Assembly: GCF_000018465.1 (NCBI RefSeq) | Contig: NC_010085.1 | Coordinates: 390,001 to 422,000, forward strand | Direction: 5' to 3' | Origin: Nitrosopumilus maritimus SCM1 | GTDB lineage: Archaea; Thermoproteota; Nitrososphaeria; Nitrososphaerales; Nitrosopumilaceae | DNA: 32,000 bases | Shown here: piece after piece, positions 11,560-28,570 of the stretch | Numbering within the stretch: the stretch's first letter is position 1 | Layout: every line of letters starts with the position of its first letter | The notes under the pieces: model-generated | What the model saw: only the letters and a program-made list of their open reading frames with translations | Databases searched by the model: none | Told to the model about the DNA's origin: nothing | Position numbers and translations under genes: made by a program

Positions 11560-12183
11560 TTATGTTGTATCTGATGTGATGTCAAATGTATATGTAATTT
11601 GTACAGTTTCACCACTGTTTAATGTAACATCTGAAGTATCAATCACTGAAAACAAAATTCCTGAAGCAGTTGCACAATTATTATAATCTGCATCACTTGC
11701 TGCACGATTTGTACATATTCCTATTGAACGAATAGTATCTCCATTAGCTACATTTGTTGAACCAGCTTGAAAAGTCAAAGGACCAACCTGTGCAGTTTGT
11801 GATGATATTGTAACTGAAGTATCTTCTTTACAATTATTTTCTGCAATTGAGTTTCCGCTATCAAATGTTGAAGCTGTATCGCTTTCTGCTGGTGTTTGTG
11901 CTTCATCACTAACACAAATTGCACCTATCTGTGTGTTATCTGATGCACTGTTTGAATCTTGAAATGTTTGTTCCAAGAGAAAAGTTTCACCTGTATCAAC
12001 TAGCCTGTTGTGAACTTGTTGTGTGAAAACATTGTTTCCATTCGCATCTATCTTTTCAATTGTTGCAAACCCGTAAAATTTTTGTTCAAAATCATTTTTT
12101 TCAAAATCAAATGGAATTACAGCTGTTGTAAATACTGTAAAAAGTACTGCGGCACTAATCGTATAGGATGTTCTTTTTTGCAT
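11560..12183 (-). CDS. Secreted 4-Cys protein P1 (207 aa), paralog of 21535..22170
   Basis: Start moved to the Met at 12183, giving a signal-like MQKRTSYTISAAVLFTVFTTAV. The tracked 33-aa extension runs through the promoter. Full-length similarity to P2 with four conserved Cys. Confidence 0.75.
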   Translation of the reverse strand: MQKRTSYTISAAVLFTVFTTAVIPFDFEKNDFEQKFYGFATIEKIDANGNNVFTQQVHNRLVDTGETFLLEQTFQDSNSASDNTQIGAICVSDEAQTPAESDTASTFDSGNSIAENNCKEDTSVTISSQTAQVGPLTFQAGSTNVANGDTIRSIGICTNRAASDADYNNCATASGILFSVIDTSDVTLNSGETVQITYTFDITSDTT

Positions 12184-12210
12184 TATATTTTGTGAAAATC
12201 GAAAATTTAC

Positions 12211-12221
12211 TAATATAGTTA
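12211..12221 (-). promoter_or_regulatory. TATA-like element TAACTATATTA of P1, identical 11-mer upstream of P2 (22195..22205)
   Basis: The plus-strand TAATATAGTTA occurs 28 nt from the P1 ATG and 25 nt from the P2 ATG. Confidence 0.5.
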
Positions 12222-12230
12222 TGGGCGAAC

Positions 12231-12244
12231 TTCCAACTTTGGAA
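12231..12244. promoter_or_regulatory. Inverted repeat TTCCA-ACTT-TGGAA (site 1 of recurrent motif)
   Basis: Perfect 5-bp arms, N4 spacer. It lies 48-61 nt upstream of the P1 ATG, just beyond its TATA box. Confidence 0.5.
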
Positions 12245-12260
12245 ATTTTTTTGTAAAAAT

Positions 12261-12276
12261 TTTCCATTTGTGGAAA
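12261..12276. promoter_or_regulatory. Inverted repeat TTTCCA-TTTG-TGGAAA (site 2)
   Basis: Perfect 6-bp arms, N4 spacer. It lies 43-58 nt upstream of the giant-ORF ATG at 12319. Confidence 0.5.
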
Positions 12277-12318
12277 GTACATTCAAGCCTTTTTAGTCGT
12301 CAAAAAATTTTTTTTTCT

Positions 12319-15300
12319 ATGAAATGGGAGATACCTCTACTGGTAAGTTTCGTATTTTTGCTCGGAATTTTTTCGTCATTTCCCGTCGTTGATAGTAATT
12401 TTACAATTGATGAAAATGGTTTGAAACATTATGTTCTAACTCCTGAAAAAAATATTTCATCATTTGATGTTGTTGCAACGTCTCTTTCTAAATACAATCG
12501 TGAAGTTGATTTTGATGAACAAGATCCGTATTTTGTTTTCTTTTTGTTCGTGTTATTGTTAGTTTTACTGTATCGTAGCAATTTCGTTTTGCAAGTAAAA
12601 CAATCTGTACTAAAAACCTTTGCATCTGATTACATCAATTTGTTTTTGAAAAATAATTTTGCACAAACATTATTTTCAGAGAACAAAATTAATCTAAAAG
12701 AAATTTTTGTTATTTTATCTTCATCAAATACAAAATTACAAAACAATTCAACTGTTTTGTATCGAAATTGTTCTAATGTATTAATAAATTCCAAGAAATT
12801 CTTTGTTTCTAAAAAAATTATCGTTGTTTTGTTGTTGTTTGTTGTTTTAATTGTTCCAGTTTATAATCATGCATATGCAGCCTCTGGTGATATTACAAAA
12901 TCTCTTGTTGATTCATTTGAGTTTGATAATCAAGCAGGTTCATACCCTGATATTATTCAAATAGATTCTAATACATTTGCAATATCTTATCAGGGACAAG
13001 GATCTGGTGTTCTTTCTGGATACATTCAAACTTTTGATATTGATAGTCTAGGAAACATTTCATCACTAAACACATTACAATTTGATCCTGATGCAATTGT
13101 ATACACTGAATTAGTTGCAGTAGATTCAGATACGTTTGCAATTGTTTACAGAAGTACTGATGCTGATGGTTTTATTCATACAGTAGACATTACTGGAGCT
13201 GGTGTAATTACAAACGGAACAAATTATGAATTCGATACTACTGCAGGTACTGATCCTCAAATAGTTGCAGTAGATTCAGATACATTTGCAGTTGTGAATC
13301 AAGGTGGTGGTGCTGATGGTTGGTTGCGAACACTAAACATATCTTCAGATGGACTAACCATTTCAGAAGAAGATAGTTTTGAATTTGATACAAATGAAGG
13401 TAGAGACAATGACATTATACAGGTAGATTCAGACACATTTTTGATTGTGTATAGGGGTGTTGAAGCTGACGGATTTGCAAAAACAATCAACATTTCAACT
13501 GATGGTACGATTAATTCTGTAGAAGACACATTAGAGTTTGAGCCTACCTTTGATGCATATCATAATGCTATTGCCCAGGTAGATTCAGACACATTTGTAG
13601 TTGCATATAGAGACATTGACAGTGATGGTCGACTAGCCACGCTTGATGTTACTAGTTCAGGCTCTATTACTCTAGTTGAGACATATGAATACGACACGAA
13701 CACTGCACAACATCCTGACATCAAGAGATTAGATGACAAATCATTTGTGATTGCATATCAGGGAGCAGGAAGTGATGGATTTATCAAAACAATTCCTATC
13801 ACTGCCTCCGGTAATATCGGAACCGTAACTGATACCTATGAATTTGATACTGGAAACGGTCGTTTCCCATCAATAATCAGTATAGATGGAAATACAGTAG
13901 CAATTGCTAGCCGTGGTGGAGGAAATGATGGTTTCTTGGATACCATATTTATCGATGTTGAACTTGCAGGCACAGATACTCCTTCTTTTGTAGAGGTTGA
14001 TGATTCATCAAAAACTGCCATAATTATGGCTAGTTCTACGCCTGTAGTCGTCAGTGAGGGTCTAAATTCTATAAATCCGGAGTTATTCCCTGCATCCACC
14101 GTTAATCCTACACATGGATTTGAAATGGGAATTTATGCCTCATCCACGCCTATTCCTGCCCATGAAGTGACAATTTCTACTATCAAGACCAATGATACCT
14201 TTGAATTTGACACTGCCGATGCAGAGACACCTGATTTGGTTCAGGTGGACACAGACACGTTTGCAGTAGTATACAAGGGAACTGATAATGATGGATTCAT
14301 CAAAACAGTAGATATCACAAGCACAGGCACGATCACTGACACTGGAAACTCCCTAGAATTTGATACTGCAGATGGATGGACACCAAATATTGTGCCTGTA
14401 GACACTGATACATTTGCAGTTGTGTATAATGGAACTGACAGTGATGGATTCGTTAAAACCTTAAATATTAGTGGAGTAGGTGCGATCACTGACACTGGAA
14501 ACTCCCTAGAATTTGATATCGCAGATGGGCTTTATCCTGATATTGTTGCAGTTGATTCAGATACATTTGCGATCGTATATACTGGAACAGATACTGATGG
14601 ATTCATTAAAACCTTAAATATTAGTGGAGTAGGTGCGATCACTGACACTGGAAACTCCTTAGAATTTGATACTGGAACTGGAATATTTCCTGATATCCTT
14701 GCAGTTGATTCAGACACTTTTGTGATTTCTTACACTGGTAACGGAAATGACGGATTTGTAAAAACGGTTGACATTACTGGCGCAGGTGTAATTAGCAGTG
14801 TAATTGACACCTTGGAATTTGATACATCCACTGCCTATGAAACATCTCTCGTAAAGATTGATGATGACACATTTGCAGTAGCATACAGAGGTCCAGGCTC
14901 TGATGGATTTGTCAAAACATTTGATATTGATAGTTCCGGAAACATCAACAATTCAATCACTGATTCACTTGAGTTTGATACTGGAAACGGCAGAGAGCCT
15001 GACATGGTTAGTCTTGGTTCTGGTAATTATGGAATAGCTTATCGTGGTAATAGTAATGATGGATTTTTTGTAATTGTAACAATTGATGATGCAGGAAACA
15101 TTGGAAACTCTGTTGTTGAATCACTTGAATACAACACATCAAATGGATATTTCCCTAGCTTAATTGGAGTTGATCTTAATACATTTGCAATTGCACATAG
15201 AGGAAATGCTGAAGATGGTTTCATTACTACTATTGACACATCAAACGAATTAGCATTTTCTGATTCAGATACTTTGGATGTTGTAGAATCTGTAGATTTA

Positions 15301-18300
15301 ATTAAAAAATATGCAATATTTGGAACTTCTGCTCCTATATTTGAACATTCAGTAATAACAACTGGCAATTCTATAATCGATGATGCAAATTCAACTCCAC
15401 TAGTAGTTTCTTCTGCTATTACACTAAAAGGATATTTCCTAAATGCAAATTCAACTCCAAATGTTTCTGATTCTGGAAATACTGTTGCACAATATACAAG
15501 AACTGCATCTGATATTTTAGATGTTGCAGAACAAAATACTGAATTTAAAAATTATACTATATCAAATTCAACAACACCCGACATTGTAAGTAGTGGAATA
15601 ATTTCATTTTCTCTTTCAGCAAACTCTACTCCACTTCTAACAAGTAACGCAACATCATCAGCTGACATCTCATCCAACTCTACTCCACTTCTCTCTAGCA
15701 ATGCCACAACTGTTGCAATGTTCGTACTTGATCCATCAACTATTCCATCTGTATCTAGTACTGCAACTGTTGCATTCACTTTGTCAGCAAACTCTACTCC
15801 ACTTCTAACAAGTAACGCAACATCATCAGCTGACATCTCATCCAACTCTACTCCTGTACTATCCAGCAACGCAACATCAACTGTCATGAGAATACTCAAC
15901 GCAACATCCATCCCATCACTATTCAGTAACGCAACATCATCAGCTGACATCTCATCCAACTCTACTCCTGTACTATCCAGCAACGCAACATCAACTGTCA
16001 TGAGAATACTCAACGCAACATCCATCCCATCACTATTCAGTAACGCAACATCATCAGCTGACATCTCATCCAACTCTACTCCTGTACTATCCAGCAACGC
16101 AACATCAACTGTCATGAGAATACTCAACGCAACATCCATCCCATCACTATTCAGTAACGCAACATCATCAGCTGACATCTCATCCAACTCTACTCCTGTA
16201 CTATCCAGCAACGCAACATCAACTGTCATGAGAATACTCAACGCAACATCCATCCCATCACTATTCAGTAACGCAACATCATCAGCTGACATCTCATCCA
16301 ACTCTACTCCTGTACTATCCAGCAACGCAACATCAACTGTCATGAGAATACTCAACGCAACATCCATCCCATCACTATTCAGTAACGCAACATCATCAGC
16401 TGACATCTCATCCAACTCTACTCCTGTACTATCCAGCAACGCAACATCAACTGTCATGAGAATACTCAACGCAACATCCATCCCATCACTATTCAGTAAC
16501 GCAACATCATCAGCTGACATCTCATCCAACTCTACTCCTGTACTATCCAGCAACGCAACATCAACTGTCATGAGAATACTCAACGCAACATCCATCCCAT
16601 CACTATTCAGTAACGCAACATCATCAGCTGACATCTCTGGTTCATCAACACCATTCCTCTCAAGTAACGCAACATCAACTGTCATGAGAATACTCAACGC
16701 AACATCCATCCCATCACTATTCAGTAACGCAACATCATCAGCTGACATCTCATCCAACTCTACTCCTGTACTATCCAGCAACGCAACATCAACTGTCATG
16801 AGAATACTCAACGCAACATCCATCCCATCACTATTCAGTAACGCAACATCATCAGCTGACATCTCTGGTTCATCAACACCATTCCTCTCAAGTAACGCAA
16901 CAGTATCACTATCTGGTTCATCAACACCATTCCTCTCAAGTAACGCAACATCAACTGGAATGTTTGACATCTCATCCAACTCTACTCCATTCCTCTCAAG
17001 TAACGCAACAGTATCACTATCTGGTTCATCAACACCATTCCTCTCAAGTAACGCAACATCAACTGTCATGAGAATACTCAACGCAACATCTGAACCAGTG
17101 ATATCAAGTAACGCTACCACTGTTGCAATGTTCAATCTTAACGCAACATCAATTCCATCACTATTTGGTAACGCAACAGTATCGCTATCTGGATCCTCTA
17201 CTCCTGTACTATCAAGTAACGCAACTTATGGAACACTTGTAGCATCAGCTAACACCACTCCATTCCTCTCAAGTAACGCAACAGTATCACTATCTGGTTC
17301 ATCAACACCATTCCTCTCAAGTAACGCAACATCAACTGTGATGCACATATTATCTGCAAACTCCAGTCCGGTTGTTTCCAGTAATGCAATTACAACTGGA
17401 ATGTTTAACATCTCAGCAAACTCTACTCCTGTACTATCAAGTAACGCAACATCAACTGTCATGAGAATACTTAACGCAACATCTGAACCAGTTCTATCTG
17501 ATGATGCACAGATAACTGGAATGTTTAACATCTCAGCAAACTCTACTCCTGTACTATCAAGTAACGCAACATCAACTGTCATGAGAATACTTAACGCAAC
17601 ATCTGAACCAGTTCTATCTGATGATGCACAGATAACTGGAATGTTTAACATCTCAGCAAACTCTACTCCTGTACTATCAAGCAACGCAACATCAACTGTC
17701 ATGAGAATACTTAACGCAACATCTGAACCAGTTCTATCTGATGATGCACAGATAACTGGAATGTTTAACATCTCAGCAAACTCTACTCCTGTACTATCAA
17801 GCAACGCAACATCAACTGTCATGAGAATACTTAACGCAACATCTGAACCAGTTCTATCTGATGATGCACAGATAACTGGAATGTTTAACATCTCAGCAAA
17901 CTCCACTCCTGTACTATCTGACAATGCTCAAGTCACTGGAATGTTCACCATCAACGCAAACTCCACTCCTGTACTATCTGACAATGCTCAAGTCACTGGA
18001 ATGTTCACCATCAACGCAAACTCCACTCCTGTACTATCTGACAATGCTCAAGTCACTGGAATGTTCACCATCAACGCAAACTCCACTCCTGTACTATCTG
18101 ACAATGCTCAAGTCACTGGAATGTTCACCATCAACGCAAACTCCACTCCTGTACTATCTGACAATGCAACAAGTGATACAGTATTTGCCTTACTAACATC
18201 TGATGCCCCAAGTCTTACAGAATCAATTGATCAAATTGAGAGATATGCAATTAATGCAATAGATGTACCTGTTATTTCAGAATCTGTTGGAAAACCAAAA

Positions 18301-20613
18301 CACTCTAAACTATTGGCTACCTCAACACCTAGAATTACAGAATTTGGATTAATCGCAGGACATTATACACTTGAAACAACTTCGATCCCAGAAATATCTC
18401 ATTCTGGAAATATCCCTCCTAGAATAACATCTGCCAATGTTACATCTACTACTCAAATTGATATTGCTTTTGAACGAAACATAGATCGTAAATCTGTAAA
18501 ACCTGCTAATTTTGTTTTGACCGATCCATCCGCTACAATAAAGGGTGTAAAAACCACAAACAATGTAATAACTTTAAGACTAGATTCGGCAATCACATCT
18601 GGCCAAACCCCAACAATTGCAATTGCTGGTAATGCTGTCAAAGATACGGATGGAAACACTGTAGATAGTGTAACTGTTACTTCGGTTGACAAAGTTCCAC
18701 CAAAAGTAAAGAAAGCTTATGCTACAACAAAGTCTAGTATAGTGATTATATTTGACAAGAATGTTACTTCACAACTATCTGATTATTCCTCTCTACAAAT
18801 TCCAACAGGAACTTCCAAGACAATCTCTGGTCATACTGCTTCAGATAATGTGGTGACCTTAACAGTAAATTCTGCAGATATAACTGCACGTGCTCATGGC
18901 ACTATTACGATTTCATCTGGTCTGACTGACACAAATGGTAATTCATTTAACACTAACCACAATCCTGTATCTGTAATATCCAATATTGAGGAAGCTCCTG
19001 TAGAATTAGATGAAGATTTTACAGATTTGGTAATTACAACTGAAGAAATTGAAATTAAAGAAATTCTGGTCAAAACAAATGTCAAGGCAAAACTTGATCT
19101 TAGTAAATCTCCAACAAAAACTACCGTAACAGAAAACAGTGTAACTAAGAATAGAGTTCAAATTACAAATGAAATGAAAATCACTTCCTCAGATGGAACT
19201 GATGAAGAAGTTCAGATAGTTATTCCAAAAGATGTTTTGGTATCTGGTCCTCAAGATAAATTTACTGGCTCCATAGATTTACCTGAACCAAAGACAAACA
19301 ATTCATGTCCAATAAACCCTGATGGTAGTCAAATAGTAAGTTGTATTGCTATAGGATTGTCTGATGACGAATTAACTTTCAACAAGGCTGTAAAGATTAC
19401 AATTCCTGGCGAAGGTTCTTTGACACCTTATTACAGTACTGATAATACTACTTGGAATGCGATATCTACACTTTGTGATGCTGCTAACACTGCAGAAGTC
19501 AATGGAGTCTCAATATCTAGTGATGGTACAAGAGAATGTTACTTTGTAGATGGATCTGATATGATAATCTGGACTACTCACTTTACAGTATTTGGTACAT
19601 TATCCTCTACCTCGACTAGTTCTAGTTCAGGAGGGGGTTCCAGTGGTGATAATTCTGCTCCTTCTATAACTACTAGTATTGGACCTTCTATTACTGATAG
19701 TGGTCTTGGAGGAATTATAGGAAATACTGATCAACCATTAGTTCCTGGAGCAGAAATCAAAAACTATCCACTTGTATTTGATGGAATTGGCTATGATGAG
19801 AATAGCTTTAATTCTGTTCATACTGCAGTCATTGAAACAGAGCAACCCTTGAATGTAATTTTGAGTCTTTATGAAAATTCAGGTGCTCAAAATATTGAAC
19901 ATGTAGAAATGTATGTCAATCATTTCGGTCCTAGAGTCCTTAATGACAGAACTGAGACTGCTATTATCTATGACAAATTTACTGGCATTGAAATTCTTGA
20001 CCCATATGGTCTAATTTCTGATGCGACTGTATTGCCTACACTTTTAGATACTCAATCTCAATTTTATTTCCAAGTGTTCTTTGAAGAAGAAATTGAACAA
20101 TCTGATGTCTTGTTTAGAGTATGGGACAAAAATAGAAATTCAGTTGAATTACATTTGTCTGATGCATTAATGGTGGTAAAAGGAGAATCATCCTCTGAAG
20201 AACGCAATGTCACTGAGTCCGGAATTGTCTCTCCAACAGACCCATCAGAATCTGAAATTGTCTCTCCAGCAGACCCATCAGAATCTGAAATTGTCTCTCC
20301 AGCAGACCCATCAGAATCTGAAATCATATCTACAGAACTTCCACCTGAATCAGAAAAAATTAAAATCCCATCTGAACCTGAACTTGGAACGTATGTAGGA
20401 ATTCCTATGGACCCAGAACCTGGTATTGATGTAAACTTGCAGATGGACCCAGAACCTGGTATTGATGTAAACTTGCAGATGGACCCAGAACCTGGTATTG
20501 ATGTAAACTTGCAGATGGACCCAGAACCTGGTATTGATGTAAACAAACCAAAATCTTTGTTGGATTCAATATCTGAATTCTTTGAGGTTCTCACAAAACT
20601 GTTGAAATTCTAA
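12319..20613 (+). CDS. Giant (~2,764 aa) N-terminally membrane-anchored surface protein: 3 hydrophobic segments, two 7-repeat propeller-like blocks, ~1,000-aa N-X-S/T-rich repeat stalk, two Ig-like domains, Cys-containing globular domains, acidic C-terminal micro-repeats
   Basis: A single uninterrupted frame of 8.3 kb in stop-rich AT-rich DNA. The first ATG is at 12319 (the track used TTG at 12268, which lies inside a promoter palindrome). Domain calls come from internal repeats read in the translation. Confidence 0.85.
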   Translation: MKWEIPLLVSFVFLLGIFSSFPVVDSNFTIDENGLKHYVLTPEKNISSFDVVATSLSKYNREVDFDEQDPYFVFFLFVLLLVLLYRSNFVLQVKQSVLKTFASDYINLFLKNNFAQTLFSENKINLKEIFVILSSSNTKLQNNSTVLYRNCSNVLINSKKFFVSKKIIVVLLLFVVLIVPVYNHAYAASGDITKSLVDSFEFDNQAGSYPDIIQIDSNTFAISYQGQGSGVLSGYIQTFDIDSLGNISSLNTLQFDPDAIVYTELVAVDSDTFAIVYRSTDADGFIHTVDITGAGVITNGTNYEFDTTAGTDPQIVAVDSDTFAVVNQGGGADGWLRTLNISSDGLTISEEDSFEFDTNEGRDNDIIQVDSDTFLIVYRGVEADGFAKTINISTDGTINSVEDTLEFEPTFDAYHNAIAQVDSDTFVVAYRDIDSDGRLATLDVTSSGSITLVETYEYDTNTAQHPDIKRLDDKSFVIAYQGAGSDGFIKTIPITASGNIGTVTDTYEFDTGNGRFPSIISIDGNTVAIASRGGGNDGFLDTIFIDVELAGTDTPSFVEVDDSSKTAIIMASSTPVVVSEGLNSINPELFPASTVNPTHGFEMGIYASSTPIPAHEVTISTIKTNDTFEFDTADAETPDLVQVDTDTFAVVYKGTDNDGFIKTVDITSTGTITDTGNSLEFDTADGWTPNIVPVDTDTFAVVYNGTDSDGFVKTLNISGVGAITDTGNSLEFDIADGLYPDIVAVDSDTFAIVYTGTDTDGFIKTLNISGVGAITDTGNSLEFDTGTGIFPDILAVDSDTFVISYTGNGNDGFVKTVDITGAGVISSVIDTLEFDTSTAYETSLVKIDDDTFAVAYRGPGSDGFVKTFDIDSSGNINNSITDSLEFDTGNGREPDMVSLGSGNYGIAYRGNSNDGFFVIVTIDDAGNIGNSVVESLEYNTSNGYFPSLIGVDLNTFAIAHRGNAEDGFITTIDTSNELAFSDSDTLDVVESVDLIKKYAIFGTSAPIFEHSVITTGNSIIDDANSTPLVVSSAITLKGYFLNANSTPNVSDSGNTVAQYTRTASDILDVAEQNTEFKNYTISNSTTPDIVSSGIISFSLSANSTPLLTSNATSSADISSNSTPLLSSNATTVAMFVLDPSTIPSVSSTATVAFTLSANSTPLLTSNATSSADISSNSTPVLSSNATSTVMRILNATSIPSLFSNATSSADISSNSTPVLSSNATSTVMRILNATSIPSLFSNATSSADISSNSTPVLSSNATSTVMRILNATSIPSLFSNATSSADISSNSTPVLSSNATSTVMRILNATSIPSLFSNATSSADISSNSTPVLSSNATSTVMRILNATSIPSLFSNATSSADISSNSTPVLSSNATSTVMRILNATSIPSLFSNATSSADISSNSTPVLSSNATSTVMRILNATSIPSLFSNATSSADISGSSTPFLSSNATSTVMRILNATSIPSLFSNATSSADISSNSTPVLSSNATSTVMRILNATSIPSLFSNATSSADISGSSTPFLSSNATVSLSGSSTPFLSSNATSTGMFDISSNSTPFLSSNATVSLSGSSTPFLSSNATSTVMRILNATSEPVISSNATTVAMFNLNATSIPSLFGNATVSLSGSSTPVLSSNATYGTLVASANTTPFLSSNATVSLSGSSTPFLSSNATSTVMHILSANSSPVVSSNAITTGMFNISANSTPVLSSNATSTVMRILNATSEPVLSDDAQITGMFNISANSTPVLSSNATSTVMRILNATSEPVLSDDAQITGMFNISANSTPVLSSNATSTVMRILNATSEPVLSDDAQITGMFNISANSTPVLSSNATSTVMRILNATSEPVLSDDAQITGMFNISANSTPVLSDNAQVTGMFTINANSTPVLSDNAQVTGMFTINANSTPVLSDNAQVTGMFTINANSTPVLSDNAQVTGMFTINANSTPVLSDNATSDTVFALLTSDAPSLTESIDQIERYAINAIDVPVISESVGKPKHSKLLATSTPRITEFGLIAGHYTLETTSIPEISHSGNIPPRITSANVTSTTQIDIAFERNIDRKSVKPANFVLTDPSATIKGVKTTNNVITLRLDSAITSGQTPTIAIAGNAVKDTDGNTVDSVTVTSVDKVPPKVKKAYATTKSSIVIIFDKNVTSQLSDYSSLQIPTGTSKTISGHTASDNVVTLTVNSADITARAHGTITISSGLTDTNGNSFNTNHNPVSVISNIEEAPVELDEDFTDLVITTEEIEIKEILVKTNVKAKLDLSKSPTKTTVTENSVTKNRVQITNEMKITSSDGTDEEVQIVIPKDVLVSGPQDKFTGSIDLPEPKTNNSCPINPDGSQIVSCIAIGLSDDELTFNKAVKITIPGEGSLTPYYSTDNTTWNAISTLCDAANTAEVNGVSISSDGTRECYFVDGSDMIIWTTHFTVFGTLSSTSTSSSSGGGSSGDNSAPSITTSIGPSITDSGLGGIIGNTDQPLVPGAEIKNYPLVFDGIGYDENSFNSVHTAVIETEQPLNVILSLYENSGAQNIEHVEMYVNHFGPRVLNDRTETAIIYDKFTGIEILDPYGLISDATVLPTLLDTQSQFYFQVFFEEEIEQSDVLFRVWDKNRNSVELHLSDALMVVKGESSSEERNVTESGIVSPTDPSESEIVSPADPSESEIVSPADPSESEIISTELPPESEKIKIPSEPELGTYVGIPMDPEPGIDVNLQMDPEPGIDVNLQMDPEPGIDVNLQMDPEPGIDVNKPKSLLDSISEFFEVLTKLLKF
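12913..13970 (+). repeat. Seven tandem ~51-aa repeats (propeller-like block 1)
   Basis: Consensus .[FY]EFDT..G..P.I..VDSDTFA[IV]VY.G...DGF.KT..I...G.I, counted 7 times before a linker. Confidence 0.7.
14198..15245 (+). repeat. Seven tandem ~51-52-aa repeats (propeller-like block 2)
   Basis: Same consensus, 7 copies. Copies 2-4 share long identical DNA stretches (for example ...ttaaaaccttaaatattagtggagtaggtgcgatcactgacactggaaactcc at about 14453 and 14609, 156 nt apart). Confidence 0.7.
15811..16836 (+). repeat. In-frame tandem array, 114-nt (38-aa) period, 9 units, first 7 apparently identical
   Basis: The unit SNATSSADISSNSTPVLSSNATSTVMRILNATSIPSLF starts at 15811, 15925, 16039 and so on (period verified at several points). 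Unit 8 carries the GSSTPFL variant. Confidence 0.9.
17401..17880 (+). repeat. In-frame tandem array, 120-nt (40-aa) period, 4 units
   Basis: The unit MFNISANSTPVLSSNATSTVMRILNATSEPVLSDDAQITG repeats at 17401, 17521, 17641 and 17761. The only difference I noticed is a synonymous agt/agc change. Confidence 0.9.
17901..18167 (+). repeat. In-frame tandem array, 60-nt (20-aa) period, ~4.4 units
   Basis: The unit NSTPVLSDNAQVTGMFTINA. The lines at 17941, 18001 and 18061 are identical 60-mers. Confidence 0.9.
18415..18980 (+). other. Two consecutive Ig-like (bacterial Big_5/SbsA-like) domains within the giant ORF
   Basis: Pattern ...ITSANVTSTTQIDIAFERNIDRKSVKPANFVLTD...ITLRLDSAI...IAIAGNAVKDTDGNTV, then a second copy, KKAYATTKSSIVIIFDKNV...VTLTVNSADI...ITISSGLTDTNGNSF. 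Recognised by eye only. Confidence 0.5.
20227..20325 (+). repeat. 33-nt x3 in-frame micro-repeat (VSP[TA]DPSESEI)
   Basis: Read directly; units start at 20227, 20260 and 20293. Confidence 0.85.
20407..20546 (+). repeat. 36-nt x~3.9 in-frame micro-repeat (MDPEPGIDVNLQ)
   Basis: Read directly; units start at 20407, 20443, 20479 and 20515. Confidence 0.85.
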
Positions 20614-20756: not shown

Positions 20757-21020
20757 ATGATGAATAGTAGGACTGGAATCTTTGTTGGACTTGCAATCGC
20801 AGTATCTGTTGGAATTGCATTTGCAGCTTCATATTCTTCTGTGAATACATCTGACTCTGAAAAATTTGAATCAGTTGTAGATATGACCGTTGAACCTAGC
20901 AGTCCTCATATTGATGATGGTGCACTTGTTGGTATTGAAAATGAAAATTATGCTGTAAATGAAGATGGTAAACGTCATTATACTTTAGTGGCAGAAACAT
21001 CTCCTGTAGTTTCTCCTTAA
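20757..21020 (+). CDS. Small N-anchored protein S2 with C-terminal VNEDGKRHYTLVAETSP motif
   Basis: Paralog of S1 (shared N-terminus and C-terminal motif). A TTTAAATA box lies about 20-27 nt upstream of the ATG. Confidence 0.65.
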   Translation: MMNSRTGIFVGLAIAVSVGIAFAASYSSVNTSDSEKFESVVDMTVEPSSPHIDDGALVGIENENYAVNEDGKRHYTLVAETSPVVSP

Positions 21021-21534: not shown

Positions 21535-22170
21535 CTAAGTTCCATCTGACTGTAGATTAAATGTGTATGTGATATCTACTGTCTCACCACTTGCTAAAGT
21601 AACATCTGATGTGTCAACTACAGCAAACAATGTTGTTGTACAATCACGAACATCATTATCTGAAGAGTCTGCATCACAAATTCCTATTGCTTCAACAGTG
21701 CTGCCTGCAAATAGGTTGTTACCAGTACCAGTACCTGCTGTAAATGTTAATGGTCCTATTGTTGCAATTTGAGAAGTACTGTCAACAGAACCATCTGTTT
21801 TACAGTTTTCTTCATCATCAGCACCACCTTCTGCTGCATCATGGTCTGTGTTGAATGTAGTGTTTGAGGTTGATTCAGCATATGATTCTGCAGCTGTTGC
21901 AGTTGTAAGGCAGATTGCACCAATTTGTGTAGCGTCAGTACCAATATCTGTTACTCCGGTAAATGCATTAGCAATTAGAAGATCTTCACCTTCATCAAAC
22001 AATTGATTGTGTACTGTTTGTGAAAGCATTTCATTTCCATTTGCATCGTGATATGTCATTGTGGCTTGTCCGTATAGGTTAAAGCCATCGTTAGTCATTG
22101 ATTGTGTTCCTGCGGGAATTACTAGAATTGCAATTAATCCTAGTAGTCCCATAGAAGCTATCTTGTACAT
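21535..22170 (-). CDS. Secreted 4-Cys protein P2 (211 aa), paralog of P1
   Basis: Signal peptide MYKIASMGLLGLIAILVIPAG. Blocks conserved with P1: DANGN, VHN.L.D.GE, TQIGAIC, NCK.D.SV, GPLTF.AG, IGIC, DTSDVTL.SGETV.ITYTF. Confidence 0.75.
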   Translation of the reverse strand: MYKIASMGLLGLIAILVIPAGTQSMTNDGFNLYGQATMTYHDANGNEMLSQTVHNQLFDEGEDLLIANAFTGVTDIGTDATQIGAICLTTATAAESYAESTSNTTFNTDHDAAEGGADDEENCKTDGSVDSTSQIATIGPLTFTAGTGTGNNLFAGSTVEAIGICDADSSDNDVRDCTTTLFAVVDTSDVTLASGETVDITYTFNLQSDGT

Positions 22171-24852: not shown

Positions 24853-25629
24853 ATGGGTGAACCCGATGTTGTACCTGAAAGACTATCAAATCCTCTAAAT
24901 CGATACATCATTTTTGGAATTTTGGTAGCGGGAGTTATCATTTTCACATCAATGAATGTGTTCAATGAAGATGATGTGAGCATTTTTGCATTTGTTATCT
25001 CGGTTTCACTTACAATCTGTCTTTCTATATTTTGCTTCATTGTATCAAAGAAACACGAAACAGGCCTTTTAGCCAAATCTTATCTTTCCTTGGGCTTAGG
25101 ATTTACTTCCTATCTTGTGGCTGAATTATTGTATTATACATTTGACTTAATCCTGGGAATTGAGGCTTATCCTTCAATTGCTGATATCTTCTTTTTTGCT
25201 CTCTATCCCTTTGTTCTAGGCCATCTGCTCTTAAACATCAGATATTTTCATTCAGGTTACACCACTTTAGAAAAAATCTGGATTCCGATAATCCCTATTA
25301 TTGCATTAATTGTCTATGTTGCTTTGTCTCTAAGCATCCCTGATGCTGAATTGAATTTTGACTTTTACTATGGTTTTATTTTTGTAACTGGCGCATCTTT
25401 CACATTATCTTTTACCATTTTGGGGGCTTCTATTTTTAGACAAGGAATATTGGGCGCAGTTTGGTTGCTACTCGTTATTGGACTGATGATTAATGCTGCT
25501 GGAGATGTTTGGTACTATCATCTAGAAATATTTGGCCTGTATTTTGATGCTCATCCTGTAACTACTGTTTGGTATGTTGCAAATATGTTCATCATCTATG
25601 CTTTATGGAAACAGCTTAAAACTACCTAG
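24853..25629 (+). CDS. Polytopic membrane protein (258 aa, ~7-8 TM), unknown function
   Basis: Hydrophobic segments throughout. No motif recognised. Confidence 0.6.
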   Translation: MGEPDVVPERLSNPLNRYIIFGILVAGVIIFTSMNVFNEDDVSIFAFVISVSLTICLSIFCFIVSKKHETGLLAKSYLSLGLGFTSYLVAELLYYTFDLILGIEAYPSIADIFFFALYPFVLGHLLLNIRYFHSGYTTLEKIWIPIIPIIALIVYVALSLSIPDAELNFDFYYGFIFVTGASFTLSFTILGASIFRQGILGAVWLLLVIGLMINAAGDVWYYHLEIFGLYFDAHPVTTVWYVANMFIIYALWKQLKTT

Positions 25630-26150
25630 ATTGATACCCATTCAGATTCTGCATTGAATTTTGATTTGTATCTCCTCATTCTTTTTAGCACTAACTCTGC
25701 AGTATTTCTGACACTTTCATTCTCATCCTGACATGATCTTTTCATTGCATCTATCTGATCAGTTGCTCTGATGATCATTAAACACTCAGTTGCTTCATGA
25801 CGTACTAGTGGACTAGGATCATAATTTGCAGCATATGCAAGTTCTGGAATAATTCTTCTCATGTTTCTAGCTGCTATCTGATAACATACTTCATGGCGTA
25901 CAACATCATTATCATCATTTTTCAAAACCCATGCAAACAAATCTGTCGTCTTTTCAAACAGTGGTCCTTTAAGACCAACCTCCACTGGTATTTCTCCTGC
26001 AAGCCATACGGCATCCCATCTTTCAGATTCATCTTTTGATGTCTTGAATATCTCTTCTAATTTCAAAAATCTCTCTTCAAGTGGCATAGCCTTGATAATT
26101 TTATCAAACTCGTCTGGAATATTGACTGTACTCATGGTAGGTGATAACAT
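25626..26150 (-). CDS. HEAT-repeat (PBS-lyase HEAT-like) protein
   Basis: Repeated D..[SDN].VR.EA...L units: DESERWDAVWLAGEI, DDNDVVRHEVCYQIA, DPSPLVRHEATECLMII, DENESVRNTAELVL. Confidence 0.7.
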   Translation of the reverse strand: MLSPTMSTVNIPDEFDKIIKAMPLEERFLKLEEIFKTSKDESERWDAVWLAGEIPVEVGLKGPLFEKTTDLFAWVLKNDDNDVVRHEVCYQIAARNMRRIIPELAYAANYDPSPLVRHEATECLMIIRATDQIDAMKRSCQDENESVRNTAELVLKRMRRYKSKFNAESEWVSI

Positions 26151-26241
26151 GTGAATTTACTACTATTTCAATTTTTGGCAAATTATTAGGATATAGATAT
26201 ATGCTTATTCCCATTATTGGAACTCATGGGTCAAATCAATA

Positions 26242-27243
26242 ATGAGCGTGGTATCTAAATTCCAGCCCACCTATGAAAACTTAAGAAAATCAAAAATCAA
26301 TAAAATTTCCCTATTTTCAAAATTAAAAAGTAAAACCGTCGGTGTGGGTTTTTTATTTGCTATTTTAGCTGCTGCATTTTCGGCATTACCTAATGTTATA
26401 CCAAAGTCATTTTTGGATGCACATGCTGTAGATACTTCAACAATTCCAAATCCCCTGATGTTGGTTTTTGTGATTTATGTTGTAAACAGTTTACTGTTTT
26501 CTCCATTTCGTAAGTCTCAAAGAGAACATGAAGTAAAAAAAACAAGTCGAATGACTTTGTTTTTGTTAATATTGCTTGGAGCAGTAGAGGCCTCAGGAAC
26601 ATTAACTTATACATTTGGACTCCAAGAAACTAGTGCAACAAATGCTTCTATCTTAGTAAATTCTGAAACTGTTTTTGCCATTTTACTAGGCATTATGATC
26701 TTTAGAGAAAAATTAAGTAAACAAGAAGTTTTGCCATTTTTCCTAATTGTTGCAGGTTCAATCTTGATTCCCGTTGGTGCTGATATTCAAAACAACGAAT
26801 GGGAATTGTCTGATTTCATGATGGGTGATTTACTTATTGTTATGTCTGGATTTTTTTACTGTCTTGACACCTTTATTGCCAAAAAACTAGATGATTCCAT
26901 CAAAACTCGTCATATAGTCCACATTATGTCCTGCACTGGTGCAATAATGACTTTGGGATTAATGTTGTTCTTTGAAATCCCATTTGATATTTCGTTTGAG
27001 GAATTATCTGTAATGTCTTTTGTTGGATTTTTGGGAATTGGTGTTACTATGATGTTTTTTGTCATTGCATTAAGATTAATTGGTGCTGTAAGGACTGTTC
27101 TAATTTACTCATCTACGACTATATTTAGCATAGTCTATTCAATTTTGATTTTATCTGAAGGGCTTACAATTTTGAATATTGTATCTACATCTAGCGTGCT
27201 AATTGGGTTGTTTGTTCTTCGTAATAGGGTGGGGTCTGATTAA
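26242..27243 (+). CDS. EamA/DMT-superfamily transporter
   Basis: About 10 TM segments in two halves, with typical EamA-like segments (ASILVNSETVFAILLGIMIFREKLS; VLIYSSTTIFSIVYSILILSEGLT). Confidence 0.7.
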   Translation: MSVVSKFQPTYENLRKSKINKISLFSKLKSKTVGVGFLFAILAAAFSALPNVIPKSFLDAHAVDTSTIPNPLMLVFVIYVVNSLLFSPFRKSQREHEVKKTSRMTLFLLILLGAVEASGTLTYTFGLQETSATNASILVNSETVFAILLGIMIFREKLSKQEVLPFFLIVAGSILIPVGADIQNNEWELSDFMMGDLLIVMSGFFYCLDTFIAKKLDDSIKTRHIVHIMSCTGAIMTLGLMLFFEIPFDISFEELSVMSFVGFLGIGVTMMFFVIALRLIGAVRTVLIYSSTTIFSIVYSILILSEGLTILNIVSTSSVLIGLFVLRNRVGSD

Positions 27244-27266
27244 GGTATGATGTTCTTATATTTATA

Positions 27267-27282
27267 TTCCCAAATTCGGGAA
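27267..27282. promoter_or_regulatory. Inverted repeat TTCCCA-AATT-CGGGAA (site 5, one inner mismatch)
   Basis: It lies 71-86 nt upstream of the HTH-B ATG. Confidence 0.4.
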
Positions 27283-27352
27283 CCACTATCTTATAAGAAT
27301 AACTCTGATTCCCTTGCATAATATTAATAACTAATAACAAAATATCAATAGT

Positions 27353-27952
27353 ATGCCTGGATTAGACAGTCTTCTTGCTAACTCCTTGAAGGAATCCATT
27401 ACAAAAGATCTTGGAAAAGGTATGGTTAAAAAAATCGAAGATCGTTTGTTTGAAAAATATGGTATTTCATTTGCTCAGTCAATTGAGAATTTTGATAAAT
27501 TAGATCTAGTTCTAAGGGAATTCTTTGGCAAGGGAACAGATGGTTTAGAGAAAAAATTCTTTGAAACAATCTTTCAATCAAAATCAAAGAACTCAAAGGA
27601 TGGATGGTACCAATTACGTGATGAAAACTTGTCACAAATGATTCTACAGTCTTTTGGTGATCCTGAAAAAAAGGCAATTTTAGAATCAGCTACTGAAACT
27701 CCAAAAATAATCACTGACATCATTAAAGATTGTAATCTATCTCAGACATCTGGTTACAGAAAAATTAACAGTTTAATCGATGACGGTTTACTCTATAAAA
27801 CAGGACATATTGTTCGTGACAATAAAAAAATCAACAAGTATGTCTGCTCATTTAGTAATCTTCGAATTAATATTGAAAATAAAAAGACAAGTGTGGAATT
27901 ACAGTTAATGGATAATGAGCAGAGCTTATTTGTTCAAACCATCAAAGCTTAG
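27353..27952 (+). CDS. Putative DNA-binding protein HTH-B (paralog of 10592..11197)
   Basis: Full-length similarity to HTH-A. The HTH-like segment is IITDIIKDCNLSQTSGYRKINSLIDDGLL. Confidence 0.6.
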   Translation: MPGLDSLLANSLKESITKDLGKGMVKKIEDRLFEKYGISFAQSIENFDKLDLVLREFFGKGTDGLEKKFFETIFQSKSKNSKDGWYQLRDENLSQMILQSFGDPEKKAILESATETPKIITDIIKDCNLSQTSGYRKINSLIDDGLLYKTGHIVRDNKKINKYVCSFSNLRINIENKKTSVELQLMDNEQSLFVQTIKA

Positions 27953-28159
27953 ATACAAATTCATTGTTACAGATTTTGGAATAGAGAAATAACTGATTTT
28001 AATTCATTATCTGATTCCATCTAATCTAACACAAAACTATCCTAATTAGATACCTGAAATTCCTAAATTCAATCAAATATTGTTGAATTCTTAAGATTAT
28101 ACCGTATGAAACCAATAATCTATTACTACGCAGTAAAAAATGACTAACGGTTAAATATC

Positions 28160-28177
28160 ATTTCCAGATATGGAAAT
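28160..28177. promoter_or_regulatory. Inverted repeat ATTTCCA-GATA-TGGAAAT (site 6, perfect 7-bp arms)
   Basis: It lies 7-24 nt upstream of the RR-B ATG, downstream of a TTAAATAT box. That is an operator-like position over the expected transcription start. Confidence 0.5.
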
Positions 28178-28183
28178 AATACC

Positions 28184-28570
28184 ATGAAGACAGCAATTGT
28201 TGTAGATAACGATCATGATATTGTTGAGGTATTTTCTGACCTTTTAGAGATGCTAGAATTTGATGTTATTTCTAAAGGATATGATGGCGGCGATGCTATA
28301 ACAATGTATGAAAAATTCAAACCAGATGTAATTTTCATGGATGTGCATATGGAAGAAATGCATGGAGATCAAGCACTAAAAGAAATTAGAACAATTGACA
28401 AGGATGTAAAGGTAGTAATGGTAACTGGGGATATGTCAAAATCTATGGAAGATACATTGGAAAAATATGGTGCATCGGCAATAATTCACAAACCCTTTGA
28501 CATTAAAATCATAAATGAAATTATTACTGAACTAGAAAATGCAACTTCTATAGTAATCCAAAAAGCATAA
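28184..28570 (+). CDS. Receiver-only (CheY-like) response regulator, RR-B
   Basis: VVDNDHD, FMDVHMEEMHG (acceptor Asp), VMVTGD and IHKPF motifs. No output domain. Confidence 0.9.
   Translation: MKTAIVVDNDHDIVEVFSDLLEMLEFDVISKGYDGGDAITMYEKFKPDVIFMDVHMEEMHGDQALKEIRTIDKDVKVVMVTGDMSKSMEDTLEKYGASAIIHKPFDIKIINEIITELENATSIVIQKA

Follow-up and report, generated by a model that had tools for sequence, protein, structure and literature searches.

A length-variable repeat stalk, probably a beta-rich spacer, in the biofilm-induced surface protein Nmar_0456 of Nitrosopumilus maritimus

How should a stalk of about a thousand residues, encoded by long arrays of nearly identical DNA within a giant archaeal gene, be understood: as a folded spacer, a carrier of glycans, an adhesive surface, or partly a product of genome assembly? 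The question is raised by a stretch of 32,000 nucleotides (nt) from Nitrosopumilus maritimus SCM1 (NC_010085.1, positions 390,001 to 422,000; hereafter the window), in which positions 15370-18420 encode 1,017 amino acids (aa) of tandem repeats. The interval lies in frame inside a single plus-strand open reading frame (ORF) of 8.3 kb (12268/12319..20613), which is 2781 aa long from 12268 and 2764 aa from the ATG at 12319. All ORFs and both transfer RNA (tRNA) genes of the window follow the published SCM1 order from Nmar_R0018 to Nmar_R0019: Nmar_R0018 (tRNA-Gly), L16, tRNA-intron lyase, a response regulator, Nmar_0453-0460 (CHASE3 kinase), HEAT, a DMT transporter, a response regulator, and Nmar_R0019 (tRNA-Glu), a match that can also be given as Nmar_0448-0466 plus both tRNAs. 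The giant ORF is therefore Nmar_0456, in agreement with the paralogous pair that flanks it, as Nmar_0455 and Nmar_0459 share a family.

Ammonia-oxidising archaea rank with the most abundant of ocean microbes, and their attachment to particles is poorly understood; in this model species, the gene with the strongest biofilm response contains a fast-evolving, length-variable stalk with no Pfam or NCBIfam match and no sequence relative among solved structures. Dreer et al. call Nmar_0456 a “large adhesion protein,” and their Dataset S6 gives a log2 fold change (log2FC) of 6.04 in biofilm versus planktonic cells (adjusted P 3.5e-194; 226.6 versus 6.05 transcripts per million, TPM), while in their Dataset S5 it tops the list of upregulated N. 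maritimus genes. The protein has been assigned to arCOG02562, “Beta-propeller repeat containing protein,” and no mention of Nmar_0456 was found in the main texts of the papers searched. The reading favored here, with a probability of roughly 0.6, is that the stalk is the central length-variable, solenoid-like, beta-rich spacer rod of a biofilm-induced secreted surface protein, homogenised by recombination or slippage. The degrees of confidence given to this reading and to its rivals overlap and are not meant to sum to one.

Repeat arrays and their evolution

Arrays were delimited with Tandem Repeats Finder (TRF) and by comparison of their units one by one (Table 1). The initial annotation of the window, made from the sequence alone, had described a stalk of approximately 1000 aa built from STP-type units, with diverged edges and homogenised arrays of 114 nt (nine copies, seven of them identical over about 800 bp), 120 nt (four copies, one synonymous difference), and 60 nt (four copies), and this anatomy stands, down to the edge units that it quoted. 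Units 1-7 of the 114-nt array (15811-16608) form 798 bp of perfect identity; unit 8 contains a 15-nt patch equal to the next unit type and is thus a hybrid, and unit 9 is again identical to units 1-7. The 114-nt unit yields a 38-aa tryptic peptide, ILNATSIPSLFSNATSSADISSNSTPVLSSNATSTVMR. The four full units of the 120-nt array differ by one synonymous T/C change, split two and two.

At the protein level, approximately 52 units can be placed on an invariant proline, 31 of them distinct. The proline is part of a polar turn (x-[ST]-x-P ... [SD]-[ND]-A-[TQ]) that is followed by alternating hydrophobic residues. Unit length is 16, 18, 19, or 20 aa (30 units of 20 aa, 13 of 18 aa, and five of 16 aa), so that the previously given 19-20 aa describes most units but is slightly too narrow.

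Three orthologous loci with conserved synteny have been retrieved with the C-terminal region of Nmar_0456: L001 (= L003), from the Nitrosopumilus metagenome-assembled genome (MAG) sequence NZ_OZ253550.1; L002, on an ENA contig; and L004, in NZ_OZ253671.1, with an intact ORF of 3799 aa. The initial annotation had proposed a comparison of array lengths among related genomes. Between the same two conserved anchors, the stalk spans 3165 nt in the window, 6258 nt in L004, and 5275 and 6427 nt in L002 and L001, the latter two being out of frame, so that their exact lengths are approximate. The SCM1 stalk is the shortest of the four and the span among genomes is roughly two-fold. Single-copy parts of the gene are 72-86% identical between the genomes, which are thus different species, and the length variation is variation between species.

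The order of blocks is conserved: the 5' edge is followed by 38-aa “SADIS/VM..L” units, “YGTL” units, “TGMFTI” units of 20 aa, and the 3' edge. The blocks that have been amplified differ from genome to genome. The window has 9.3 copies of 114 nt, 4.4 of 120 nt, and 4 of 60 nt; L004 has 17.5 copies of 114 nt, 9.1 of 273 nt, and 13.4 of 60 nt; L001 has about 21 copies of 114 nt, 7.2 of 273 nt, and 8.8 of 60 nt; and L002 has 17.7 copies of 114 nt and repeats of 108/444 nt in 15.7/3.9 copies. The 273-nt repeat of L001 and L004 is the counterpart of a heterogeneous block that is present approximately once in the window. The 114-nt units are 92-98% identical within a genome but only 65-85% identical between genomes, and the arrays have therefore been homogenised by concerted evolution or by recent independent amplification, as had been proposed from their near-perfect DNA identity.

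The near-identical DNA repeats correspond to blocks of two to five units, and such blocks could therefore be added, deleted, and homogenised by unequal recombination or replication slippage, which could also carry one substitution (such as Asn to Thr or to Asp) into dozens of units together; both the length of the stalk and such array-wide substitutions would then change quickly between lineages. Copy number may also be polymorphic within a strain.

It is improbable that the identity and low copy number of the SCM1 arrays arose partly in assembly, through reads that were collapsed or homogenised in the consensus, with a real array that is longer or more heterogeneous. The SCM1 stalk is about half as long as those of its relatives, the perfect tract is as long as 798 bp, and the exact protein is found on one contig only among approximately 15 billion proteins, hence no independent assembly confirms it. 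However, the ORF is intact and in frame through all arrays, and block order is conserved among genomes. MAG relatives with complete chromosomes have similar arrays at 93-99% identity, one of them within the intact ORF of L004, so high identity within the arrays is a real feature of the locus. In L001 (880-12445) and L002 (46-9289) the ortholog is split into several gene calls by frame breaks in or beside the arrays, which could be sequencing or assembly errors or, alternatively, mark real pseudogenes. Genomes assembled from short reads or from error-prone long reads are likely to contain this locus in a mis-assembled or broken form, and two of the three relatives have broken frames.

Fold and glycosylation of the stalk

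The composition of the stalk (36% Ser plus Thr, 5.5% Pro, 28% VILMFWY, and a net charge near zero) does not correspond to that of mucin-like PTS (Pro/Thr/Ser) domains, which are dominated by these three residues, poor in hydrophobic residues, and disordered. Relative to the charge-hydropathy boundary (0.42), its mean hydropathy of 0.52 falls on the side of folded proteins. The distinct units of the window and L004 agree in having Pro at position 5 and hydrophobic residues at positions 7, 11, 16-17, and 19, while N, D, T, and S replace one another at the polar positions. Across four genomes, the non-homogenised 5' edge can be aligned free of gaps, with ISFS, VAMFVL, and AFTLS all retained. The acidic, mostly Asn-poor stalks of Cenarchaeum show the same hydrophobic stretches when inspected by eye. 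These features suggest that a folded, beta-rich rod is more likely than a mucin-like chain, with moderate confidence that comes mainly from the conserved hydrophobic periodicity and the composition.

The stalk contains 83 N-X-S/T sequons in 1017 aa (8.2 per 100 aa), compared to 33.9 +/- 4.3 expected after shuffling of the composition, although few independent events underlie this figure as the units are copies of each other. Of the Asn residues in the stalk, 85% are in sequon context; the corresponding shares for the propellers and the C-terminal part are 21% and 11%. The extreme sequon density reported in the initial annotation is thus real; the accompanying figure of about four sequons per unit applies to the 38- and 40-aa units, but the 20-aa units of the 60-nt array have one each. 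The S-layer protein of the same species, NmSLP, shows 17 Asn-linked glycan densities per monomer at N-X-S/T sites (PMC11153153), but no N-glycosylation was detected by glycoproteomics in N. piranensis (PMC12153357). N-glycosylation of the stalk is therefore plausible in N. maritimus, where the 83 sequons, a signal-peptide-like N-terminus, and an active N-glycosylation pathway are what a substrate of AglB would be expected to have.

The stalk could then be a disordered, mucin-like chain that bears a dense brush of AglB-added N-glycans, which would extend and shield the protein, as the initial annotation had proposed. In addition to the sequon density in the window and the demonstrated glycosylation of NmSLP, the stalk of the sister lineage L002 retains 124 sequons in 1712 aa despite independent expansion of its arrays, Ser, Thr, and Asn make up 46% of the stalk, and the predicted solenoid discussed below is perhaps an artefact. 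Nevertheless, such a brush seems doubtful. More than a quarter of the residues are hydrophobic and Pro is scarce, every type of unit conserves the hydrophobic positions, and the same stretches occur, by eye, in the mostly Asn-poor stalks of Cenarchaeum. Both L001 and L004 have STAT or SDAT in place of SNAT, and as a result L004 has only 2.7 sequons per 100 aa in its stalk and 1.0 per 100 aa in its 114-nt array (7 in 667 aa), so that a glycan brush is not the conserved function. The absence of detectable N-glycosylation in N. piranensis points the same way. Sequon richness is specific to the clade of the window and L002 rather than a conserved property of the stalk, and glycans would be a lineage-specific overlay instead of the reason for its existence. 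Of the proposed brush, the sequon density stands, while its mucin-like character is at odds with the composition and the hydrophobic periodicity.

Prediction with AlphaFold2 (AF2) from the single sequence of window 17335-18597 gave a pLDDT (predicted local distance difference test) score of 83-93 over the arrays and a strict strand periodicity of 20 residues, each 20-aa unit containing one strand of two residues and one of eight. The predicted strands match the conserved hydrophobic positions, and the loops contain the sequon Asn residues. The best Foldseek matches to this model are the autotransporter beta-helices of Ag43, Hap, pertactin, and TibA.

Several observations weigh against a regular folded rod, or against parts of the proposal. 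AF2 is reported to yield beta-solenoids that are confident yet unrealistic from sequences of perfect repeats, including 36 of 50 random 20-residue repeats (PMC11795689), and the model of the stalk is therefore weak evidence. In the same run, pLDDT was low for both the diverged edge units and the Ig domain, and no fold match is significant (best expectation (E) value 0.012, template modelling (TM) score at most 0.35). Within the strand segment, units differ in length (16/18/20 aa), as is not usual in a regular solenoid, and the Ser, Thr, and Asn content suggests that the stalk may be partly disordered. The length comparison includes two approximate values, from arrays with about 3% indels in L001 and from a contig of only 1.93x coverage in L002. 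As for a location at the surface, the third hydrophobic segment near the N-terminus may be a cleaved signal peptide, and the protein is without a recognised archaeal C-terminal anchor.

Nevertheless, a folded spacer is the reading that we prefer. Each unit of 16-20 aa would be one rung of a beta-rich, solenoid-like rod that, in its presumed orientation on the cell, sets the distance from the propeller end to the Ig and C-terminal end of the adhesin. At an assumed 0.48 nm per rung, the usual spacing of beta-strands, the 52 units would give a rod of approximately 25 nm in SCM1, compared to 40-50 nm in the relatives. Asn occupies the polar turn positions in the N. maritimus lineage and does so within N-X-S/T motifs, so the loops of the rod could bear up to 83 N-glycans.

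Known repeat proteins and wider relatives

The closest concept to the stalk is that of the periscope proteins, bacterial surface proteins of variable length that include SasG, Aap, Rib, SraP, and the PATR beta-helix repeats of ShdA (reviewed in PMC9704523, which does not mention archaea). Like these, Nmar_0456 would be a surface protein with central tandem repeats that are near-identical in DNA and differ in number between relatives; the repeat tract has been proposed in both to be a rod that sets the projection of a domain, and both are linked to biofilm or adhesion. The very high DNA identity between repeats that characterises periscope proteins is found in the 114-, 120-, and 60-nt arrays. 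A signal-peptide-like N-terminus is consistent with a surface location, while the rod itself is suggested by a single-sequence AF2 model, which is unreliable for perfect repeats. However, periscope repeats are autonomously folded domains of more than 50 residues (approximately 50-165 aa), and the stalk has base units of 16-20 aa with higher-order units of 38, 40, and 91 aa. It also differs in its archaeal host, in having no cell-wall anchor motif, and in that the variation is seen between species.

The stalk also resembles certain autotransporters in its period. Ag43, AIDA-I, and TibA have repeats of approximately 19 residues that form the rungs of a beta-helix, and AIDA-I and TibA are heavily glycosylated. 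A period of approximately 19-20 residues (16-20 aa in the stalk), a role in adhesion or biofilm formation, and possibly the dense glycosylation of a beta-solenoid are shared with Nmar_0456. Differences include the absence of a beta-barrel translocator (the C-terminus has Ig-like domains and then a helix) and of an outer membrane, and autotransporter glycans are O-linked heptoses added in the cytoplasm, while Nmar_0456 would acquire N-linked glycans from AglB on the outside of the membrane. Matches to autotransporter passenger families were found neither in Pfam and NCBIfam scans of Nmar_0456 nor in sequence searches of the PDB, and the structural matches given above come from a doubtful model.

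By analogy to these adhesins, the stalk itself could be adhesive, with a beta-sheet surface that self-associates between cells or binds to surfaces and an avidity that increases with the number of units. Nmar_0456 is the gene most strongly induced in biofilm, its nearest (non-significant) fold matches are self-associating beta-helices, including the glycosylated TibA, and the units suggest that regular ladders of Thr, Ser, and Asn would be exposed on the rod. This is the least probable of the alternatives considered here, as there is no significant structural or sequence relationship to the Ag43, AIDA-I, and TibA families and the protein also contains two propellers and several Ig-like or other beta domains, which are more usual binding modules.

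Mucin PTS domains and the archaeal halomucin are long Ser/Thr-rich tandem repeats in giant extracellular proteins, with variable repeat number. The Nmar_0456 stalk is similar to them in these respects and in its high potential glycan density, but differs in composition, in its conserved hydrophobic periodicity, and in that the proposed glycans are N-linked at sequons and not O-linked.

The stalk belongs to no Pfam or NCBIfam family and to no autotransporter family; its true relatives are unannotated giant proteins of the Nitrosopumilaceae. A word-indexed search with the stalk alone gave one match, a fragment of L001 named “beta strand repeat-containing protein” by NCBI. An exhaustive search of 1.84 billion representatives gave only 72 weak matches, many of them to proteins that are unrelated but have a period of 20 residues (leucine-rich repeats, for example), and a scan of metagenomes returned only short contigs, none of which extends to the stalk. 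The matches that share the motif include CENSYa_0582 (3077 aa) and CENSYa_0848 (3666 aa) of Cenarchaeum symbiosum, annotated only as hypothetical proteins, which are apparently true, if distant, homologs of the stalk (E 5e-11 and 3e-13, with a periodicity of 20/40 residues). As in Nmar_0456, N-terminal propeller-type repeats precede a stalk of 20-aa repeats, and a D/P/E-rich tail ends in an amphipathic helix; the propellers of CENSYa_0582 and the Big_5 domain after its stalk are Pfam matches, while the layout of CENSYa_0848 has been read from its sequence. The Cenarchaeum stalk units differ in being acidic ([ST]D[AST]P.[IV].D...), mostly Asn-poor, and low in sequons by eye, and the propellers are of different, SGL/lactonase-like families. 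The acidic units at the 3' edge of the Nmar_0456 stalk resemble those of the Cenarchaeum homologs.

Nmar_0456 appears to fit a grouping of giant Nitrosopumilaceae proteins with propeller repeats, a Pro-anchored stalk of approximately 20-aa units, a Big_5 Ig domain, and a D/P/E-rich tail with a terminal amphipathic helix, a grouping that is defined from the present results and is not a curated family. NVIE_001020 of Nitrososphaera viennensis, another ammonia-oxidising archaeon with an S-layer, has been placed with Nmar_0456 as a biofilm-induced large adhesion protein (PMC12448741), a likeness that comes from the published grouping and not from sequence comparison. A bolder suggestion, which we consider improbable as a whole, is that the first archaeal counterpart of the periscope proteins is to be found in Nmar_0456 and its relatives, which would form an undescribed, Nitrosopumilaceae-restricted family of beta-solenoids with 16-20 residues per rung, in which concerted evolution tunes the length of the rod (approximately 25 to 50 nm) and, as single Asn/Thr/Asp substitutions spread through entire arrays, switches it between heavily N-glycosylated and glycan-free states from lineage to lineage. 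The locus provides a handle on whether the reach of an adhesin or its glycan shielding is tuned by lineage, on whether the bacterial periscope principle extends to archaea with an S-layer, and, through polymerase chain reaction across the array, on strain typing. It should be useful for the biology of ammonia-oxidising archaea and for quality control of assemblies, while conceptually it is unsurprising.

Remaining domains, gene model, and neighbors

Outside the stalk, Nmar_0456 consists of an N-terminal signal/anchor module, two presumed seven-bladed propellers, Ig-like and other beta domains, and a C-terminal helix (Table 1). No part of the whole protein gave a significant match in Pfam and NCBIfam scans, and PDB sequence searches with the propeller, stalk, and C-terminal parts gave none below E 0.1.

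Table 1. Features of the Nmar_0456 locus, with positions numbered from the first letter of the window
Feature	Position	Strand	Description
Nmar_0455	11563..12183	-	small secreted protein; co-induced in biofilm, published log2FC 3.05
Nmar_0456	12319..20613	+	complete gene, 2764 aa; ORF open from 12268; giant secreted/surface “large adhesion protein”
N-terminal module	12319..12882	+	three hydrophobic segments, read from translation
Propeller region	12883..15282	+	14 repeats of ~51 aa in two sets of seven ([VI]D.DTFA[IV] motif spacing); presumed propellers
Linker between propeller sets	13963-14187	+	~75 aa, holds stalk-like STP units
Diverged 5' stalk edge	15370..15810	+	unique units, one of 40 aa; gapless one-to-one alignment in four genomes
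114-nt (38-aa) array	15811..16865	+	9.3 copies; units 1-7 and 9 identical, unit 8 hybrid
Heterogeneous block	16837..17393	+	16-, 19-, and 20-aa units (“VSLS,” “YGTL” types); about one copy
120-nt (40-aa) array	17394..17913	+	4.4 copies; one synonymous difference
60-nt (20-aa) array	17914..18153	+	four identical copies, unit LSDNAQVTGMFTINANSTPV
Diverged 3' stalk edge	18154..18420	+	TSDAPSLTES..., AIDVPVISES..., TSTPRITEF..., TSIPEISHS...
Two Ig-like beta-sandwich domains (Big_5 / SbsA-like)	18421..19035	+	predicted by AF2, 6-sequence alignment, pLDDT 65-85
Two further all-beta domains	19318..20190	+	AF2 secondary structure, pLDDT 50-70, low confidence
Ser/Gly-rich linker between the two further beta domains	19606-19770	+	
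Acidic proline-rich short arrays	20223..20544	+	TRF
C-terminal amphipathic helix	20551..20610	+	conserved; KSLLDSISEFFEVLTKLLKF; AF2 helix, model residues 714-729
Nmar_0459	21538..22170	-	small secreted paralog; published TPM 26,171 in biofilm versus 2,135 planktonic

The N-terminal module has a signal-peptide-like hydrophobic segment at 12319-12396, a second segment at 12529-12576, and a third, with AYA|AS at its end, at 12811-12879; its topology and cleavage are those suggested by the translation. The promoter and first 140 codons (window 12180-12690, L004 667-1180) are 96-97% identical in DNA to L004, compared to 61-83% in the remainder of the gene, and residues 18-110 show zero changes at second codon positions relative to L004, which suggests that the 5' end is an unusually conserved module or has recently recombined. 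A short motif found by eye is common to this module (DENGLKHYVLTPE, window 12400-12440) and the 87-aa Nmar_0457 (NEDGKRHYTLVAE, 20940-20985), in both cases after the signal peptide.

The propeller region is the only part of Nmar_0456 with many homologs, and matches to a word-indexed search with the whole protein align to it alone. Its 153-nt arrays are 75-83% identical by TRF. The repeat of about 51 aa (FEFDT...VDSDTFAVVY.G...DGF.KT) was recognised by none of the Pfam or NCBIfam models. Its relatives include many proteins of approximately 4300 aa with a type IX secretion system C-terminal sorting domain (PF18962); if these are taken as bacterial, the propeller module would be common to different domains of life.

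For the Ig-like domains, Foldseek returns generic tandem-Ig matches, there is a faint match to SWM_repeat, and PF13205 has been recorded on the ortholog P0027. For the C-terminal 730 aa, the AF2 model from a 6-sequence alignment is of low confidence overall (mean pLDDT 50), and this part includes disordered Ser/Gly and acidic Pro-rich segments. The first of the further beta domains has many paralogs in OZ241981.1, a Nitrosopumilus MAG of 2.04 Mb (L005-L019) with at least 13 loci that have giant ORFs of approximately 1000 to more than 4100 aa. These ORFs have in common the beta domain located after the Ig domains of Nmar_0456 and are a large paralogous family of giant surface proteins; a search for the stalk motif found none in them, with a pattern that was too strict and also missed the known stalk of CENSYa_0582.

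The short arrays before the C-terminus, which recur in L001 and L002, are of 33 nt (3.1 copies, 20223-20324) and 36 nt (3.8 copies, 20407-20544, 100% identical, unit MDPEPGIDVNLQ). The 36-nt array is 99-100% identical within each genome and has equal copy number in the window, L001 (12239-12376), and L002 (9083-9220), but its sequence differs between genomes, and it is a compact case of concerted evolution within the same gene; the protein sequence of L004 suggests approximately one copy fewer. The C-terminal tail is kept in the orthologs and is similar in CENSYa_0848 (ILDGIIDFVRSLLGL) and CENSYa_0582 (FLDRIIEFFASLFG), and in all three proteins it directly follows the D/P/E-rich stretch. This tail may be a sorting or anchoring signal; to our knowledge, no such signal has been described.

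Two alternatives to the gene model have been rejected. Database gene calls begin at MKWEIP (12319) and not at an internal TTG before the third hydrophobic segment, and the pattern of substitutions by codon position also favors coding from 12319. A non-coding or antisense origin of the arrays does not agree with a sense ORF that is continuous over 8.3 kb and expressed. ORFs at 15552-17135 (-), 17226-17924 (-), and, in another frame, 17924-18196 (+), of 527, 232, and 90 aa, respectively, are by-products of the arrays; in L001, such by-products have been annotated as a series of 88-aa genes.

Nmar_0455 and Nmar_0459, the paralogs on either side of the giant gene, are 44% identical (E 3e-45), and their arCOG annotation notes an “expansion in Thaumarchaeota.” Given its very high transcript level in biofilm, Nmar_0459 could be a matrix or fibre subunit that acts with the adhesin. 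Published transcriptomes show that Nmar_0455-0460 are mostly induced in biofilm (Nmar_0457, with a log2FC of -0.6, is the exception), while Nmar_0461-0465 directly downstream (window 24853-28570; a histidine kinase-like gene, HEAT, a DMT transporter, an ArsR-like gene, and a response regulator) are repressed, with log2FC of -1.4 to -3.0. The two neighboring blocks are therefore oppositely regulated, and each contains two-component genes.

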